Notes: generated from the sequence alone by a model not told the origin. Shown: positions 955-35,924, numbered from the stretch's first letter. The stretch is 64,000 nt of DNA from Eledone cirrhosa (GCA_964016885.1 OZ024741.1:378758001-378822000), one strand, 5' to 3'. Numbers and translations: made by a program.

Positions 955-1149
955 AGTTTTAATATAGATGAGATTCTACAGGAGTAGAACTGTTTCATTC
1001 ATTAGAAATCATCAGGAATCTCCTGATGATTTCTAATGAATGAAACAGTTCTAGTCCTGTAGAATCTCATCTATATTAAAACTGTTATACTCTGCTATGT
1101 ATTGAGTACCTTACTTACTGTGGTTACCTCCGATTCAACCCGGAATAAC
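955..1149 (+). mobile_element. Mini head-to-head PLE 3'-end insertion in (TA)n
   Basis: Arms ~955-1018 and 1021-1083 are near-perfect inverted repeats, each containing an HHR. A ~65 nt tail follows the right arm only. Related copy at 14476-14656. Confidence 0.8.
972..1020 (-). ncRNA. Type I hammerhead ribozyme (mirror copy 1021-1066, +)
   Basis: GATTC-CTGATGA-T-TTC/GAA-T-GAAA-CAG..CTG-TA-GAATC; 5-bp stem I, GUA cleavage triplet. Confidence 0.75.
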
Positions 1150-1501
1150 GTATATATATATATATATATATATATATATATATATATATGATTATGGCTG
1201 CCCCCACGTTATCGAGTATGGCACGAGAATAAAAAAAAATAATAATAATAATAACAATAATAATAAATAAATTTAAAAAAAAAAAAATGAATATATATAT
1301 ATATATATATATATAATTAATACAATAACAGAGATAGTTTAAAGCTAAACACTGATTGGTAACCATCTCACTCAACAAACATTAGGTTATATTAAAATAT
1401 AAACCCAATTTAAGTGTTTGGGGTGCTAACAATATGTATAATGTGGAAAAGCTAGTTGTATTATTTTACGAGATATAATTGAAGTTAAAGTATATCTCTC
1501 T

Positions 1502-1628
1502 TTCCAAACAATTGTTTCATCATAAGTTTTCTACAAGTTTGGGAGAATGTTTCCAGTTTATGTAGAAGCCTAATATATATTCATGTAAGAATATATTTAG
1601 GTGGGCACTTATAAATCATCAGTGGAAG
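1502..1628 (-). ncRNA. Hammerhead ribozyme with branched stem II
   Basis: CTTCCA-CTGATGA-T-TTATAAG...CTTATGA-T-GAAA-CAATTG-TT-TGGAA; palindromic stem III. Confidence 0.7.
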
Positions 1629-2485
1629 CCCATTAGACATTGATATAAGAAAACAATTTCTTACCGCCGTCAAAAATCATGTCGAATGACCGCCACATTT
1701 GAAATTCCAGCAGTTTTTGATGAGGAAGTATCATAGCGACACGAAGCGGGAAGGGGAGACAACCCACGATCCACGAAATGAGGAAAAAAAAATAATATAC
1801 ACGCGGGTTAATTAGTTTTTTTGAAAACATTATCAATCCAACGTGTTTAAGAACTCAATTGAAAATAAAAAAATAAATATATGCTTGTATAAATTACACA
1901 CGCATATAGATATTTTCTTAGGCTAAATCAGAAGTTGTACCCGAATAAGAACCGCTTCTCATAACCGCAGTAAATGCAGAAAGTTATGCTATAAAGGGCA
2001 AATGGGAATATAATTCTCCGGCCGAATTATTAAGAGTAAAATATAAAACACACGCGGGTTAATTAGTTATTTCAAAACCAATATTAATTCCTCGTGTAAA
2101 GAACTCAATAAATAAAAGAAAATAAATACATATATGCATGTAATTATATACGTAGGCATATATATATATTTTCCTAGGCTAAAAAACAGAGAAGTTACAA
2201 CGAAAGAAAGCCAAAATATTTCACAACAGTAATAAATACGGTAAGTCAAATTCATAAGGTACCTGGAAATAAATACCTCTGGCCAATCAAGAGTAAATAT
2301 TTAATACAATAACAGAGATAGTTTAAAGCTAAACTCTGACTGGTAACCATCTCACTCAACAAACATTAGGTTATATTAAAATATAAACCCAATTTAAGTG
2401 TTTGGGGTGCTAACAATATGTATAATGTGGAAAAACCAGTTGTATTATTTTATGAGATATAATTAAAGTTAAAGTATATCTCTCT

Positions 2486-2612
2486 TTCCAAACAATTATT
2501 TCATTATAAGTTTTCTACAAGTTTGGGAGAATGTTTCCAGTTTATGTAGAAGCCTAATATATATTCATGTAAGAATATATTTAGGTGGGCACTTATAAAT
2601 CATCAGTGGAAG
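2486..2612 (-). ncRNA. Hammerhead ribozyme, second unit
   Basis: Same fold 984 nt away; TTATAAG/CTTATAA stem is perfect here. Confidence 0.65.
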
Positions 2613-3380
2613 CCCATTAAACATTGATATAAGAAAACAATTTCTTACCGCTGTCAAAAATCATGTCCGTAAAGTTGCTCTCTCTCAACTCGAATGACCG
2701 CCAAATTTGAAATTCCAGCAGTTTTTGACTGAGGAAGTATCATAGCGACACGAAGCGGGAAGTGGAAACAATCCACGATCCACGAAATGAGGAGAAAAAA
2801 AATATATATATATACACGCGGGTTAATTAGTTTTTTTGAAAACATTATCAATCCAACGTGTTTAAGAACTCAATTGAAAATAAAAAAATAAATATATGCT
2901 TGTATAAATTACACACGCATATAGATAATTTCTTAGGCTAAATCAGAGTTTGTACCCGAATAAGAACCACTTCTCATAACCGCAGTAAATGCAGAAAGTT
3001 ATGCTATAAAGGGCAAATGGGAATATAATTCTCCGGCCGAATTATTAAGAGTAAACTATAAAACACACGCGGGTTAATTAGTTAATTCAAAACTAATATT
3101 AATTCCTCGTGTAAAGAACTCAATTAATAAAAGAAAATAATACATACATACATATATACATACACACATACATACACATACACACACACATATACACACA
3201 CATACATTAATAATAATAATAATAATAATAATAATAATAATAATAATAATAATAATAATAATAATAATAGCAATAATAATAATAATGACAACAACAATAA
3301 TAATATGCATATTCATATATATATACACACACACGCACGCACATAAGCATATCTACACACACACACACACACGATAGCAA

Positions 3381-4090
3381 CTAACAGTGCTGCAATCGAA
3401 TGTGGCTTTTTAGCCCAGCCAATGATCTAAAATGTCTTGCACAGAGTCGGCAATCAAAACATTCACTGGGAATAGTCGGCTGTGGTTGGAGTTCGTGTAC
3501 TTTTGCATTCCTGTTACCCTTTCCTTTGTACAAGACCACCATTACTGCATCTCTCCAGTCCTCAGGCACGGATTCATTAGCCCATATCCTTCCAAACAAA
3601 GAGTGAAGATGTTGCAGGAGTCTCTCACCACCATATTGTAGGAGCTCAGCATGTATGCTATCCATACCTGGAGACCTTCCACTGTTCAGCTTCGAAATAG
3701 CCTAATTATCTCTTTTACATTGTTCTGGAACATCATTGAATTGGGAAAAAAAAAAAAAGTAATAATAATAGTAATAATAATAATAATAATAATAGTACAC
3801 TATTAATAATTATTAATGCACTCGTGCAATGCTTGTGCGTGACGAATATTTTTAAAGTGAGGAAAGACTGTGCACTGAGCCAATCCCACTGTCTGAGCGA
3901 TAATAGCTATAACCCGAAAAGAAGAAAAGATCAACATCATCGGTAACTACTGAGCCGCAGGTTTTATATCGGAGTTAACCCAGTTTCCTGAGATGCCTTC
4001 TCCTAGAAGAATGCCCTGACAAGGGCTAGGGATTCTTCACTCCCAGTGGTTTAACTGCGCGATCGGGCATCCAGCCCGATTATTTCTATG
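3381..4090 (-). mobile_element. Internally deleted RTE-clade LINE
   Basis: RT N-terminal segment SPGMDSIHAELLQ...VPEDWRDAVMVVLYKGKG joined to C-terminal C2H2 CRLC..FRSLAGLKSHIR; RTE-type 5' UTR motif (CCTTCTCCTAG on +) near 3995. Confidence 0.75.
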
Positions 4091-33584: not shown

Positions 33585-33929
33585 GTCGGCTCTACTTCGA
33601 CAGACTTCAAATCTCGTTTCAATAACAATAAATGTTCCTTTACGAATATTACTAAGACATCTTCAACATCTCTATCCAACTTATTATGGAATTTAAAATC
33701 CAAGAATATAAACTACTCTTTATCTTGGAATATTGTCTCCAAAGCAACATCTTACACAGCTGTATCCAAATTATGTAGCCTTTGCGTAGAGGAAATATTC
33801 TTTTTACTAAAATCTAAGAACTCTATTAATTTTCGGAATAATTTATTTACTTCTTGTAAACATCGGTTAAACTCAACTTTTAGATATATATATATAAAAT
33901 GTAATATATGTTCATTCTTCCTTACATAA
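33585..33929 (+). pseudogene. PLE GIY-YIG C-terminal half (open frame without a start codon, absent from ORF track)
   Basis: VGSTSTDFKSRFNNNKCSF..STSLSNLLWNLK..WNIV..CSLCVEE..CKHR. Confidence 0.85.
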
Positions 33930-34974
33930 GGTTTTCTACATCCAAACACCGATAATCTCTGCCCTCTGATTATATACATCAATATAATTCGAACTTTCCT
34001 AAATATATAAAGTACACTTATTAATATTAATTTACTCCTTAAAACCTTTATTTTCTAATACTTATATTATCGCACTTTTCAATCCTATCTCCAGAAATTA
34101 TTTTATGAAAATGTTTTGAAAAATTCTAAAAATTTCCTTCGAAACACCTTCTGTAAATTTTTGTAAAACTTATGATTAAATTTCTGAAAGGTTCTTTTGA
34201 AAGATACGAAAAACCAATATTTTCATATCTTCCATTACCCCTACATCTTCCAATACTCTAAACATGTTTAATACTTATGTATTTTCATATATATCCAATT
34301 ATTTTTAATACTTATGTATTTTCATATATATCCAATCACTTATATTATTTATATATATGTGGAATAATTATGTCTTATATTTTAATTATATTTTAAGATG
34401 AATTTTTATAACTTCTTATAGCTTTTGTAGTGATTTTTATCTATCCTTGGAGTCATTTGGGTTTTAAAAACATCCCTTTTAACTTACTTTAAACTTCCTT
34501 ATTGTTTTTATAATCCCAATTTTTATAGTCTAATTTATAGTCGAAATTGTAAATGGTTTTAATATATTCTCCTAATTAAATAAGTTCTCCTTTCTAAAAC
34601 CTCGTTAATCTCCATAAATATTTGATGTTTAAGATTTGACTTATAACTATTAATAAACTACGGCTAAATATAATTTTGCCAAACTTACTTTAATCAAACA
34701 AACTATACGTGGTTTTTTTTCCAATGCAAAAACTATACATTCACATTATTTATAACCTATAACATAACATACCCATCTGAACCTATATAGTATTATTACA
34801 TCTTAATAATTTTTTATATACCTCTTTATATAATATATCTTATTGTAATTAATTAAATTTTAATTAAATTTTAATTAAATTTTGAATTAAATTTTAATTA
34901 AATTTCTGTTTACATTTTTAACTAAATTATAACAATATTCTTTTGTAAAGATTTTTTATCATTAATTTAATTAT

Positions 34975-35160
34975 AAATAATTGTTTCTACTTTTGGCACA
35001 ATGCCAGCAATTACCCAGTTCACTACTGGTACTTTACTTTATCGACCCCGTAAGGATGAAAGGCAAAGTTAACCTCGGCGGAATTTGAACTCAGAATGGT
35101 AAGGGCCGTAACTCTATGCGTCAAAGCATGGCGTCCGACCCTCTACTGATACTGCCAATA
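34975..35160 (-). mobile_element. tRNA-derived SINE inserted in the PLE 3' UTR
   Basis: Minus strand GAGTTCAAATTCCGCCGAGGTTAACTTTGCCTTTCATCC..GGGGTCGATAAA..GTACCAGT..GCTGGCATTGTGCC. Confidence 0.8.
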
Positions 35161-35689
35161 AATAATATAAACATAACATAATGAATGATATATTTACATT
35201 CTGAGTGCTCATCCATATAAAATTTATTTCTTCGCTCACTTCGCCCATCTTTCTCTTTCTCTTTCTTTCACTCCCCCTCACTACTCTTTCTTCCTCTTTT
35301 TTCAATATTTTTTTCAATATTCTTTTCTCTCTCCCTCCCAATACTTTTCCTTTCTCTCTCCATCTTAATATTTGTTCTTTCCTTCACTCTCTCTCAATAT
35401 TATATATTTTCTCTTTTTTATTCTATCTCTTTCTCCCTCCTCCCTTTCAATATATTTTTTCTCTGTATCTCTATCCCTCTCATTTGTTTCCTCTTCATCT
35501 CCCTCGCTCTCAATATTTTGACAGTTTAATTTAAATCAACTGTTGTTTTTTTCAATTTTTCTGACACTCATTTGCATACTCACTCACAACATTGTATCAC
35601 CCTCAATTATCTCCACTATCCAGCGAATTTCAACCGTTGAGGTTGACTTTTTTCAGCGTATGTCAATATTTATTTATGAAACAAATCTG

Positions 35690-35755
35690 TATTTTATCTG
35701 ATGAAAGCGCACCATAATTTACCTTTGTCGCCCTTGAAATATATATAATACAATA
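35690..35755 (+). ncRNA. Hammerhead ribozyme
   Basis: TATTTTAT-CTGATGA-AAG..CTT-GAA-ATATATAT-A-ATACAATA; 7/8-bp stem I, AUA site. Confidence 0.7.
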
Positions 35756-35924
35756 ATTATGGTTTTATAAATATAGTTTCCATTTATATTGTATATTTAC
35801 TCCACAAAACTGCTGAGTGCTTTATTTCAGTTATAAACATTGTTAAACTTGTTGAATCCCCAAAAAATTAAATATAACCTCTGCATATATATATATATAT
35901 ATGTGTATATATATATATATATAT

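Follow-up and report, generated by a model that had tools for sequence, protein, structure and literature searches.

Asymmetric head-to-head insertions of Penelope-like elements in (TA)n tracts of Eledone cirrhosa and their probable origin by priming at two sites

Penelope-like elements (PLEs), whose reverse transcriptases (RTs) form the sister group of telomerase RTs (PMC8557442), can insert as inverted pairs, and the insertions analyzed here, in a 64,000-nucleotide (nt) window of the Eledone cirrhosa genome (GCA_964016885.1 OZ024741.1:378758001-378822000), have this architecture, which is already published (PMC8557442, PMC3846280): an inverted, 5'-truncated copy, a one-sided tail, and a (TA)n target. 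The passages on insertion structure in Craig et al. 2021 (PMC8557442) give a tail of 30 to 40 bp at one end, ascribe it to endonuclease (EN)-mediated resolution, and call the mechanism open. Those in Arkhipova et al. 2013 (PMC3846280) describe head-to-head copies with target site duplications (TSDs) of 8 to 10 bp and propose self-priming on an antisense template. As in Penelope of D. virilis and Pen2a of A. vaga, an inverted truncated copy lies head to head beside the 5' end, the tail is at one end, and partial tandems occur. Like the published EN-containing (EN+) PLEs, of which Hydra, Naiad, and Neptune have (TA)n targets, several families described here have a candidate hammerhead ribozyme (HHR) core near the 3' end, including the U3-A8 core variant noted in PLEs before (PMC4209133); unlike the published tails of 30 to 40 nt, tails here reach 65 to 125 nt. 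The passages of PMC8557442 and PMC3846280 on these structures contain no count of tail positions, no test of arm haplotypes, and no repeat addition at a start site.

The Poseidon element of Anolis carolinensis (PAc; Frangieh et al. 2024, PMC11167929) is predicted to be a dimer; it cleaves both strands, extends each of them, and starts reverse transcription at two internal sites that bound the tail. That study does not tie the two sites to the inverted arrangement (the word "inverted" is missing from its three supplements too) and reports no repeat addition. The E. cirrhosa insertions would share with PAc the cutting and extension of both strands, the two internal starts bounding the tail, a predicted dimer, and an AT-rich target, here as read from genomic sequence, and by analogy the two registers observed match the two RT start sites of PAc in vitro. 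Unlike PAc, whose start sites are non-homologous to the target, both start sites here have TA matches.

Self-BLAST and arm alignments recovered all seven inverted repeats that an original prediction, made from the window sequence, had placed there, each adjoining (TA)n and with 3' ends facing outward. In all seven (elements 1 to 7), arm alignments and end read-outs show the outer-end extension, or tail, on one arm only, with lengths of about 67, 79, 70, 95, 35-38, 47, and 87 nt. Arm identity spans ~86% (element 3) to ~97% (element 6), indicating that the elements differ in age and are not fold-back sequencing artefacts, an argument from arm divergence that the prediction had already made. Their sizes, 181 to 5876 bp, cover an about 32-fold range rather than the ~40-fold range claimed. 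The earlier list lacked an eighth element of this build, at 36560-37117, whose tail is on the left.

The palindromes are genuine head-to-head PLE insertions and occur genome-wide. Among 95 inverted repeats (spacer of at most 3 kb) listed regardless of family in two arbitrary 200-kb blocks, 42 adjoin a TA run, as opposed to 2 to 3% per end for random positions, an excess over chance. The other side has 25 to 140 nt in 30 of these 42 (null, 11 to 13%) and more than 140 nt in 9, the remaining 3 being symmetric. The density in the sampled blocks, one of which is TA rich, is ~1 such palindrome per 13 kb, which, were the blocks typical, would extrapolate very roughly to 2 x 10^5 palindromes across the 3.0 Gb of the genome.

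These insertions probably arise when both ends of the target prime cDNA synthesis at two fixed sites of a single RNA; the RT would stutter like telomerase where the tail-less arm starts, and end-joining would follow. The family of element 5 (family 5) is young and yielded 60 distinct loci in two genome searches, unresolved loci being extended by 40 stretches of 9 to 10 kb. Of the 60, 32 are head-to-head pairs in which both ends could be resolved, and an additional pair encountered incidentally brings the total to 33; L115 is head to head with an unresolved far end, two loci were left unextended, and the remainder are solos or tandems. In every one of the 33 pairs, one arm reaches the tail end and the other stops 35 to 40 nt short, and the subset found with a tail-free query behaves likewise (13 of 13). 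Outer ends are bimodal in five families, at 0 and at -35..-40 (family 5), about -92 (family 4), -45 (family 6), -86 (family 7), or about -60 (family 8), and because of this bimodality families 4 to 8 can be said to have the optional one-end 3' tail of EN+ PLEs. Asymmetric pairs read by eye number 11, 4, 15, and about 10 in families 4, 6, 7, and 8, and both-tail pairs number 3, 1, 1, and 0. A bimodal tail/no-tail pattern within one insertion, the check set beforehand, was therefore found in about 74 of 79-80 pairs.

The tail is not confined to the longer arm: it lies on the longer arm in 13 pairs and on the shorter in 12, and the arms are within 15 nt of each other in 8 (n = 33; ends inside an internal microsatellite are approximate). 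In 12 pairs, element 5 among them, each arm holds sequence missing from the other, so that neither can be a simple copy of its partner. A mini-element, L129, forms a 34th asymmetric pair, and its internal deletion recurs at one other locus, indicating descent from a deleted source. Six solo copies lack the tail.

The tail-less ends of family 5 are also marked by CT runs. At this site the template reads (CT)2 followed by ATA, and at least 3 CT units stand between element and flank in 28 of 35 tail-less ends by pattern search, with five more by eye and up to 38 units; among the 33 pairs, (CT)3-38 occurs at 29 tail-less ends. Inside tailed arms, this site holds no more than 2 CT units (0 of 57 exceed this), runs of at least 3 CT lie at 30 of 1864 TA-run ends in the random blocks, and a control family with a CT seed next to TA is unexpanded in 4 of 4 cases. 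The runs show no increase in length with arm divergence (rho, -0.13; P = 0.47), and the runs are also present in independent contigs. At L003 and L100, the CT run joins a non-TA flank. The simplest reading is that the runs reflect reiterative copying of the two-unit template just after primer pairing, and since such copying occurs once a primer has paired, the tail-less end would be a start of synthesis. The (GA)n at 23565..23575, beside element 5, is likely a product of reiterative copying at an RT start. Runs of (GT)n also occur at tail-less ends whose template continues CA (window 14463-14476 and C3 block 10977), possibly through the same reiterative copying in other families.

Both arms appear to derive from one template, rather than from any two RNAs. 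The arms agree at 71 of 81 shared-variant sites in 34 family-5 pairs (L115 included), whereas shuffled partners agree at 8.5% on average and at 30% at most in 2000 shuffles, and 12 variants private to a single locus are nonetheless found in both of its arms. Several subfamilies contributed family-5 copies. Arms end at -326..-350 in 10 of the 14 pairs with both arms of 400 nt or less and in 0 of the 19 with a longer arm, a contrast that is somewhat inflated by the class definition. This limit coincides with sequence words at -372 and -340, which we take to be TATA-like and initiator-like, respectively, with a predicted RNA start at -340. From the shared variants and the pattern of this limit, the arms appear to have a common template and a common 5' limit. 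Half of the arm disagreements (5 of 10) fall at one site, -126, where raw reads carry the window's letter in only ~1-2%; considered as an RT-error hot spot, this site probably reflects a mistake in the assembly and was excluded from the evidence.

All junctions read differ from one another and show 0 to 8 nt of microhomology, blunt joins (as in element 5, at 27462/27463), or short templated inserts, which would be traits as in alternative end-joining. Self-complementary (TA)n, which the prediction had made the source of the two primer ends, is helpful as a target but not required: the tail-less ends of L003 and L100 join non-TA flanks, and the head-to-head copies in the passages of PMC3846280 are flanked by 8- to 10-bp TSDs. 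Empty sites identified by paralogy were usable in two cases (L182 and L043), with ~11-12 nt of TA-like sequence compared to 28-48 nt when filled; two are too few to claim that insertion makes (TA)n de novo. At L105, L112, and L125, family-5 5' ends are joined without TA to unrelated, opposite-facing sequence resembling a PLE 3' end, and these may be mixed-family pairs.

On the mechanism that we favor, a GIY-YIG enzyme acting as a predicted dimer would first cut both strands of AT-rich DNA, as PAc does in vitro. Both start sites in the template carry a short TA match and lie one tail length apart, and each target 3' end would pair at its own match. At the tail-less site, the family-5 RT would re-copy the two-unit CU template, adding (GA)n as telomerase does. 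The two cDNAs would halt independently or at the RNA 5' end, such that either arm could be the longer, and the trailing RT would displace the first cDNA. Joining of the two cDNA ends would then give junctions with the microhomology or templated inserts that are observed, and the outcome would be a 3' end duplicated head to head with a tail on one arm; priming at one end only would leave a solo copy, with or without a tail. Such two-site twin priming fits the in vitro data for PAc, in which two RT starts bound the tail and both strands are extended (PMC11167929). The earlier proposal that two ends prime at different 3' registers and that the truncated ends join gains from the bimodality, the tails on short arms, and the CT runs; amended to a single template and freed of the need for (TA)n, it is probably right in outline.

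In L1 twin priming, too, a single RNA is primed by both target ends and microhomology joins the cDNAs, but the second primer pairs at a variable internal site, which inverts the 5' part without duplicating the 3' end, and the element has a poly(A) tail. Unlike L1, the starts here are fixed near the 3' end and the cDNAs would overlap to form a palindrome; as predicted, sequence is duplicated, with the 3' end in both arms and no poly(A). Telomerase repeat addition and the 3'-end slippage of non-LTR elements both re-copy a short RNA template at the primer end. Unlike telomerase, the genomic runs seen here point to a 2-nt repeat added at one of two internal starts of a mobile element. The literature searched, mostly non-subscription papers, contained no two-primer model, arm-haplotype test, or start-site repeat addition for PLEs. 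A broader proposal, that PLEs in general integrate by double target-primed reverse transcription, with a dimer gripping the tail as a spacer, a single RNA, and telomerase-like dinucleotide addition at initiation, is possible but more tentative.

Several observations weigh against two-site priming on one RNA. Junction microhomology is equally compatible with deletion repair and so fails to discriminate between the models. None of the raw reads confirmed a junction, as the short public reads cover none, and no strand-change joint was found among raw reads and contigs over the family-5 3' end, which are short reduced-representation fragments uninformative for junctions and empty sites. The CT runs occur in one family only; start sites in the other families would yield TA runs indistinguishable from the target. 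The coupling of tailed and tail-less arms is not absolute, there being five both-tail pairs (L068, L176, L193, L219, and L261) and a sixth, L254, inside a larger inverted repeat, and the queries for families 4, 6, and 7 included the tail, which makes no-tail pairs invisible there. L060 (256/257 nt) is a near-symmetric palindrome located away from the predicted 5' end of the RNA, and in a 4.6-kb Hydra palindrome the 5' ends lie ~62 nt apart inside the open reading frame (ORF); both are more simply explained by tight fold-back. Two RTs on one RNA would need strand displacement. Finally, PAc starts at RNA sites non-homologous to the cut DNA, and its start site is alike on both strands (PMC11167929).

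The near-symmetric palindromes, together with a short fold-back at L118, are what would be expected if a cDNA begun at the tail end copied itself, the second arm being resolved at the tail-less site by endonuclease or strand transfer and central deletions following later. Fold-back of this kind would yield one template and strict asymmetry together, and it combines self-priming and EN-mediated resolution, both put forward in passages of PMC3846280 and PMC8557442. We nevertheless regard it as unlikely. There is no excess of tails on long arms, the tail being on the shorter arm in 12 of 25 unequal pairs (P = 1.0), and fold-back would therefore need secondary deletions in nearly all pairs, some of them one-sided (L049). 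In addition, the CT runs would have to arise at the end of synthesis and not at a primed start, and tail-less solos exist.

Strand displacement would be unnecessary if the two ends primed on two separate RNAs of the same source copy, held by an asymmetric dimer. This arrangement accommodates tails on either arm, CT runs, and occasional both-tail pairs, and transcripts of one source would have variants in common. It would, however, demand near-perfect pairing of RNAs from the same locus although several subfamilies contributed copies, and short and long RNAs should mix, whereas the -340 limit never occurs with a long arm (0 of 19); we consider this origin improbable. Less probable still, and barely worth entertaining, is self-priming on an antisense transcript, advanced in passages of PMC3846280 for head-to-head junctions and intron retention, or the copying of source loci that were already palindromic: PAc primes on sense RNA in vitro (PMC11167929), inheritance of junctions from palindromic sources is rejected by the difference among all junctions read, and neither version explains the fixed tail-less register or the CT runs. 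That the pairs are assembly or fold-back sequencing artefacts, or chance neighbors in common (TA)n targets, is next to inconceivable, for although short public reads span no junction and elements do accumulate in TA tracts, the arms differ by 1-14%, are unequal in length and tail, meet at junctions without TA, and share subfamily variants far more often than shuffled partners do.

The passages of PMC8557442 name the formation of tandem and inverted structures and the bias toward microsatellites as open problems of PLE transposition. The young copies described here constrain both: they point to one template, the tail can be on either arm, the registers are fixed, and repeats appear to be added at one of the starts; the shape itself was known, and what is new is a direct genomic test of a stated open question. 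The favored model also relates the inverted copy to the pair of RT start sites seen in vitro for PAc. If double priming is true, PLEs would be a built-in source of long palindromes and of the microsatellites that host them. If a mobile sister of telomerase adds repeats, this would be relevant to the origins of telomerase and of dinucleotide microsatellites. Palindromes at the density found in the sampled blocks matter for assembly, repeat annotation, and false microRNA hairpin calls; the Rfam microRNA matches in the window are microsatellite or hairpin artefacts.

The PLE-derived features of the window, and one later insertion, are as follows.

955..1150: element 1; arms 955-1019 and 1020-1083, tail 1084-1150 (67 nt); canonical HHR core in each arm; non-coding 3' end of a very high-copy family that includes element 3.
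7441..7632: element 2; arms 7442-7497 and 7498-7553, tail 7554-7632 (79 nt).
14476..14657: element 3; related to element 1 (86% identity) but older, with a tail of ~70 nt; the junction cuts the HHR core, and a (GT)n run lies at the tail-less end.
15500..19833: element 4; assigned to the Hydra type; left arm 15500-17185, lacking the tail; right arm 17186-19833, in which a broken GIY-YIG remnant lies near 17300-17720 (plus strand); tail 19738-19833.
21160..23549, minus strand: solo PLE, 5' truncated, Neptune/Nematis-type; its 3' untranslated region (UTR) is that of the element 6 family.
23565..23575, plus strand: interrupted (GA)n run that separates (TA)n from element 5 at its tail-less end.
23576..27462, minus strand: long tail-less arm of element 5; 5'-truncated ORF 24993-27482 (829 amino acids [aa]); U3-A8 HHR core.
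27463..29445, plus strand: short tail-bearing arm of element 5; GIY-YIG (Pfam PF01541, E = 1.7e-5), 3' UTR, tail 29409-29445.
29555..30857: element 6; arms 29557-30115 and 30253-30809, tail 30810-30856 (47 nt).
30937..35885: element 7; assigned to the Hydra type; left arm 30937-30995 plus 33084-33582, right arm 33583-35885, which carries an EN remnant at about 33583-33880; tail of 87 nt at 35798-35885; each arm with a canonical HHR core.
30996..33083, minus strand: Helitron fragment of 2.1 kb with a PIF1 helicase ORF (31860-32696, E = 1e-28), a TC start, and a hairpin plus CTAG end.
36560..37117: element 8; a 291-bp tandem monomer in a head-to-head pair whose left side bears a 59-nt tail.

The Helitron fragment is a later insertion into the left arm of element 7, for which the other arm supplies the empty site. 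The tail is on the right in elements 1 to 7 and on the left in element 8; the random blocks hold both orientations, and the agreement among the seven is therefore probably due to chance.

The 829-aa ORF of element 5 contains DKG, RT motifs with YLDD, a CX4CxxC linker, and GIY-YIG with CCHH, and thus combines a PLE-type RT and GIY-YIG in one ORF, as EN+ PLEs do; Pfam RVT_1 did not match this ORF, and the RT call is made from motifs. A 4998-bp family-5 unit, assembled from the tandem copy L115 and the window, has an 1177-aa frame that begins directly past the tail, indicating that the tail end is an internal RNA position, as in PAc. Partial tandems (pseudo-long terminal repeats) occur in L092, L115, and L126, which, with the inverted truncated copies, is the combination found in EN+ PLEs. 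Families 4, 6, and 7 retain EN or RT-EN remnants. Elements 1 to 3 and 8 have no coding sequence, and for elements 1 to 3 a PLE origin is suggested by the common architecture, the tail stem (described below), and, in family 1/3, the HHR core. In family 1/3, 5' ends cluster ~30 nt below a TATA-like word; the families of elements 1 and 2 were examined in copies met within other fetched DNA.

The original prediction assigned the insertions to Neptune- and Naiad-type families, of which the first assignment stands. Elements 5 and 6 have a C-terminal EN with CCHH, a CX4CxxC linker, and a CxxC motif that separates the GIY part from the YIG part, as do Neptune/Nematis elements, with their CX2-5CxxC linker, in the passages of PMC8557442, and are Neptune/Nematis-type as assigned by these EN and linker motifs. 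Element 6 itself is the 3' UTR of a family related to family 5; the attached RT-EN ORF, found in L254, is 54% identical. L254 (568-6890) is the family-6 both-tail pair, and its inverted repeat continues into the flanks for ~500 bp past the tails. Elements 4 and 7 have a C-terminal EN without CCHH, a CxCX5C linker, and CxxC and CxH motifs (remnant translations and L271), matching, along with the (TA)n target, the Hydra features in passages of PMC8557442, and are Hydra-type by these EN-region motifs. A Naiad identity is ruled out by the C-terminal EN beside the 3' UTR in all four coding families, the Naiad clade being described there with an N-terminal GIY-YIG, then CxC, a C-terminal RT, and no canonical HHR.

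The presence of an HHR in both arms, claimed for all seven, was borne out in elements 1, 5, 6, and 7 and failed in 2, 3, and 4. Both arms carry the canonical core in elements 1 and 7 and the U3-A8 variant in elements 5 and 6 (degenerate in 6), whereas the core is degenerate in element 4, cut by the junction in element 3, and absent from element 2. At the family level, pattern searches detected the core in families 1/3, 4, 5, 6, and 7 and not in families 2 and 8, and CUGANGA was found neither in element 2 nor in three longer copies of family 2. Rfam gave no hammerhead match in the window.

The 291-bp monomer of element 8 (window 36560-37117; L235-L253) forms tail/no-tail head-to-head pairs in about 10 of 11 readable loci and has 2021 genome-search candidates. 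It bears a tRNA-like segment at 36943-37007, called by Rfam (33.3 bits; gathering threshold, 29), ARAGORN having found no tRNA gene. Neither pattern search nor Rfam detected an HHR core, and its identity as a non-LTR retrozyme was rejected, the 291-bp tandems being present but the requisite type I hammerhead lacking. Like the non-LTR retrozymes in passages of bioRxiv 10.64898/2026.07.22.740005, it is a short tandem monomer apparently riding on PLE machinery; unlike them, it combines a tRNA-like segment and tail/no-tail pairs with the lack of an HHR core. The monomer may be a PLE-dependent element similar to short interspersed elements (SINEs), and if double priming is true, such tRNA-bearing monomers would be the PLE-dependent counterpart of SINEs; no title or abstract in the literature search named a tRNA-bearing PLE-dependent monomer.

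Among tails of at least 65 nt, 15 of 26 start with a 4-bp stem (ACTC/GAGT, GCTC/GAGC, or GTTC/GAAC) located 4 to 15 nt past the tail-less site, as opposed to 0 of 12 short tails and a mean of 0.5 in shuffles, although the motif was picked post hoc and several tails belong to one family. The tally covers the tails of elements 1 to 4 and others in the C1 and C3 blocks, and the stem is a candidate protein-binding element. At L094 and L105, the long-arm 5' ends have short tandem re-copies (130 nt once and 43 nt three times), which suggests that the RT jumps back at stall sites.

Elsewhere in the window, tandem copies of a non-LTR retrotransposon (~5-kb period, 95% identical, Pfam RVT_1) occupy 43966-59245 and 59289-60875, a region with neither TA runs nor PLE palindromes. 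A 179-bp palindrome without TA flanks lies at 43249-43427, and an 860-bp direct repeat lies at 1310-3156. More decayed PLE RT/EN remnants were detected by tblastn at 11924-12707 and 42218-43735. A 279-bp direct repeat with an HHR core, at 6623-7419, ends at (TA)n and is probably another tandem PLE 3' end.

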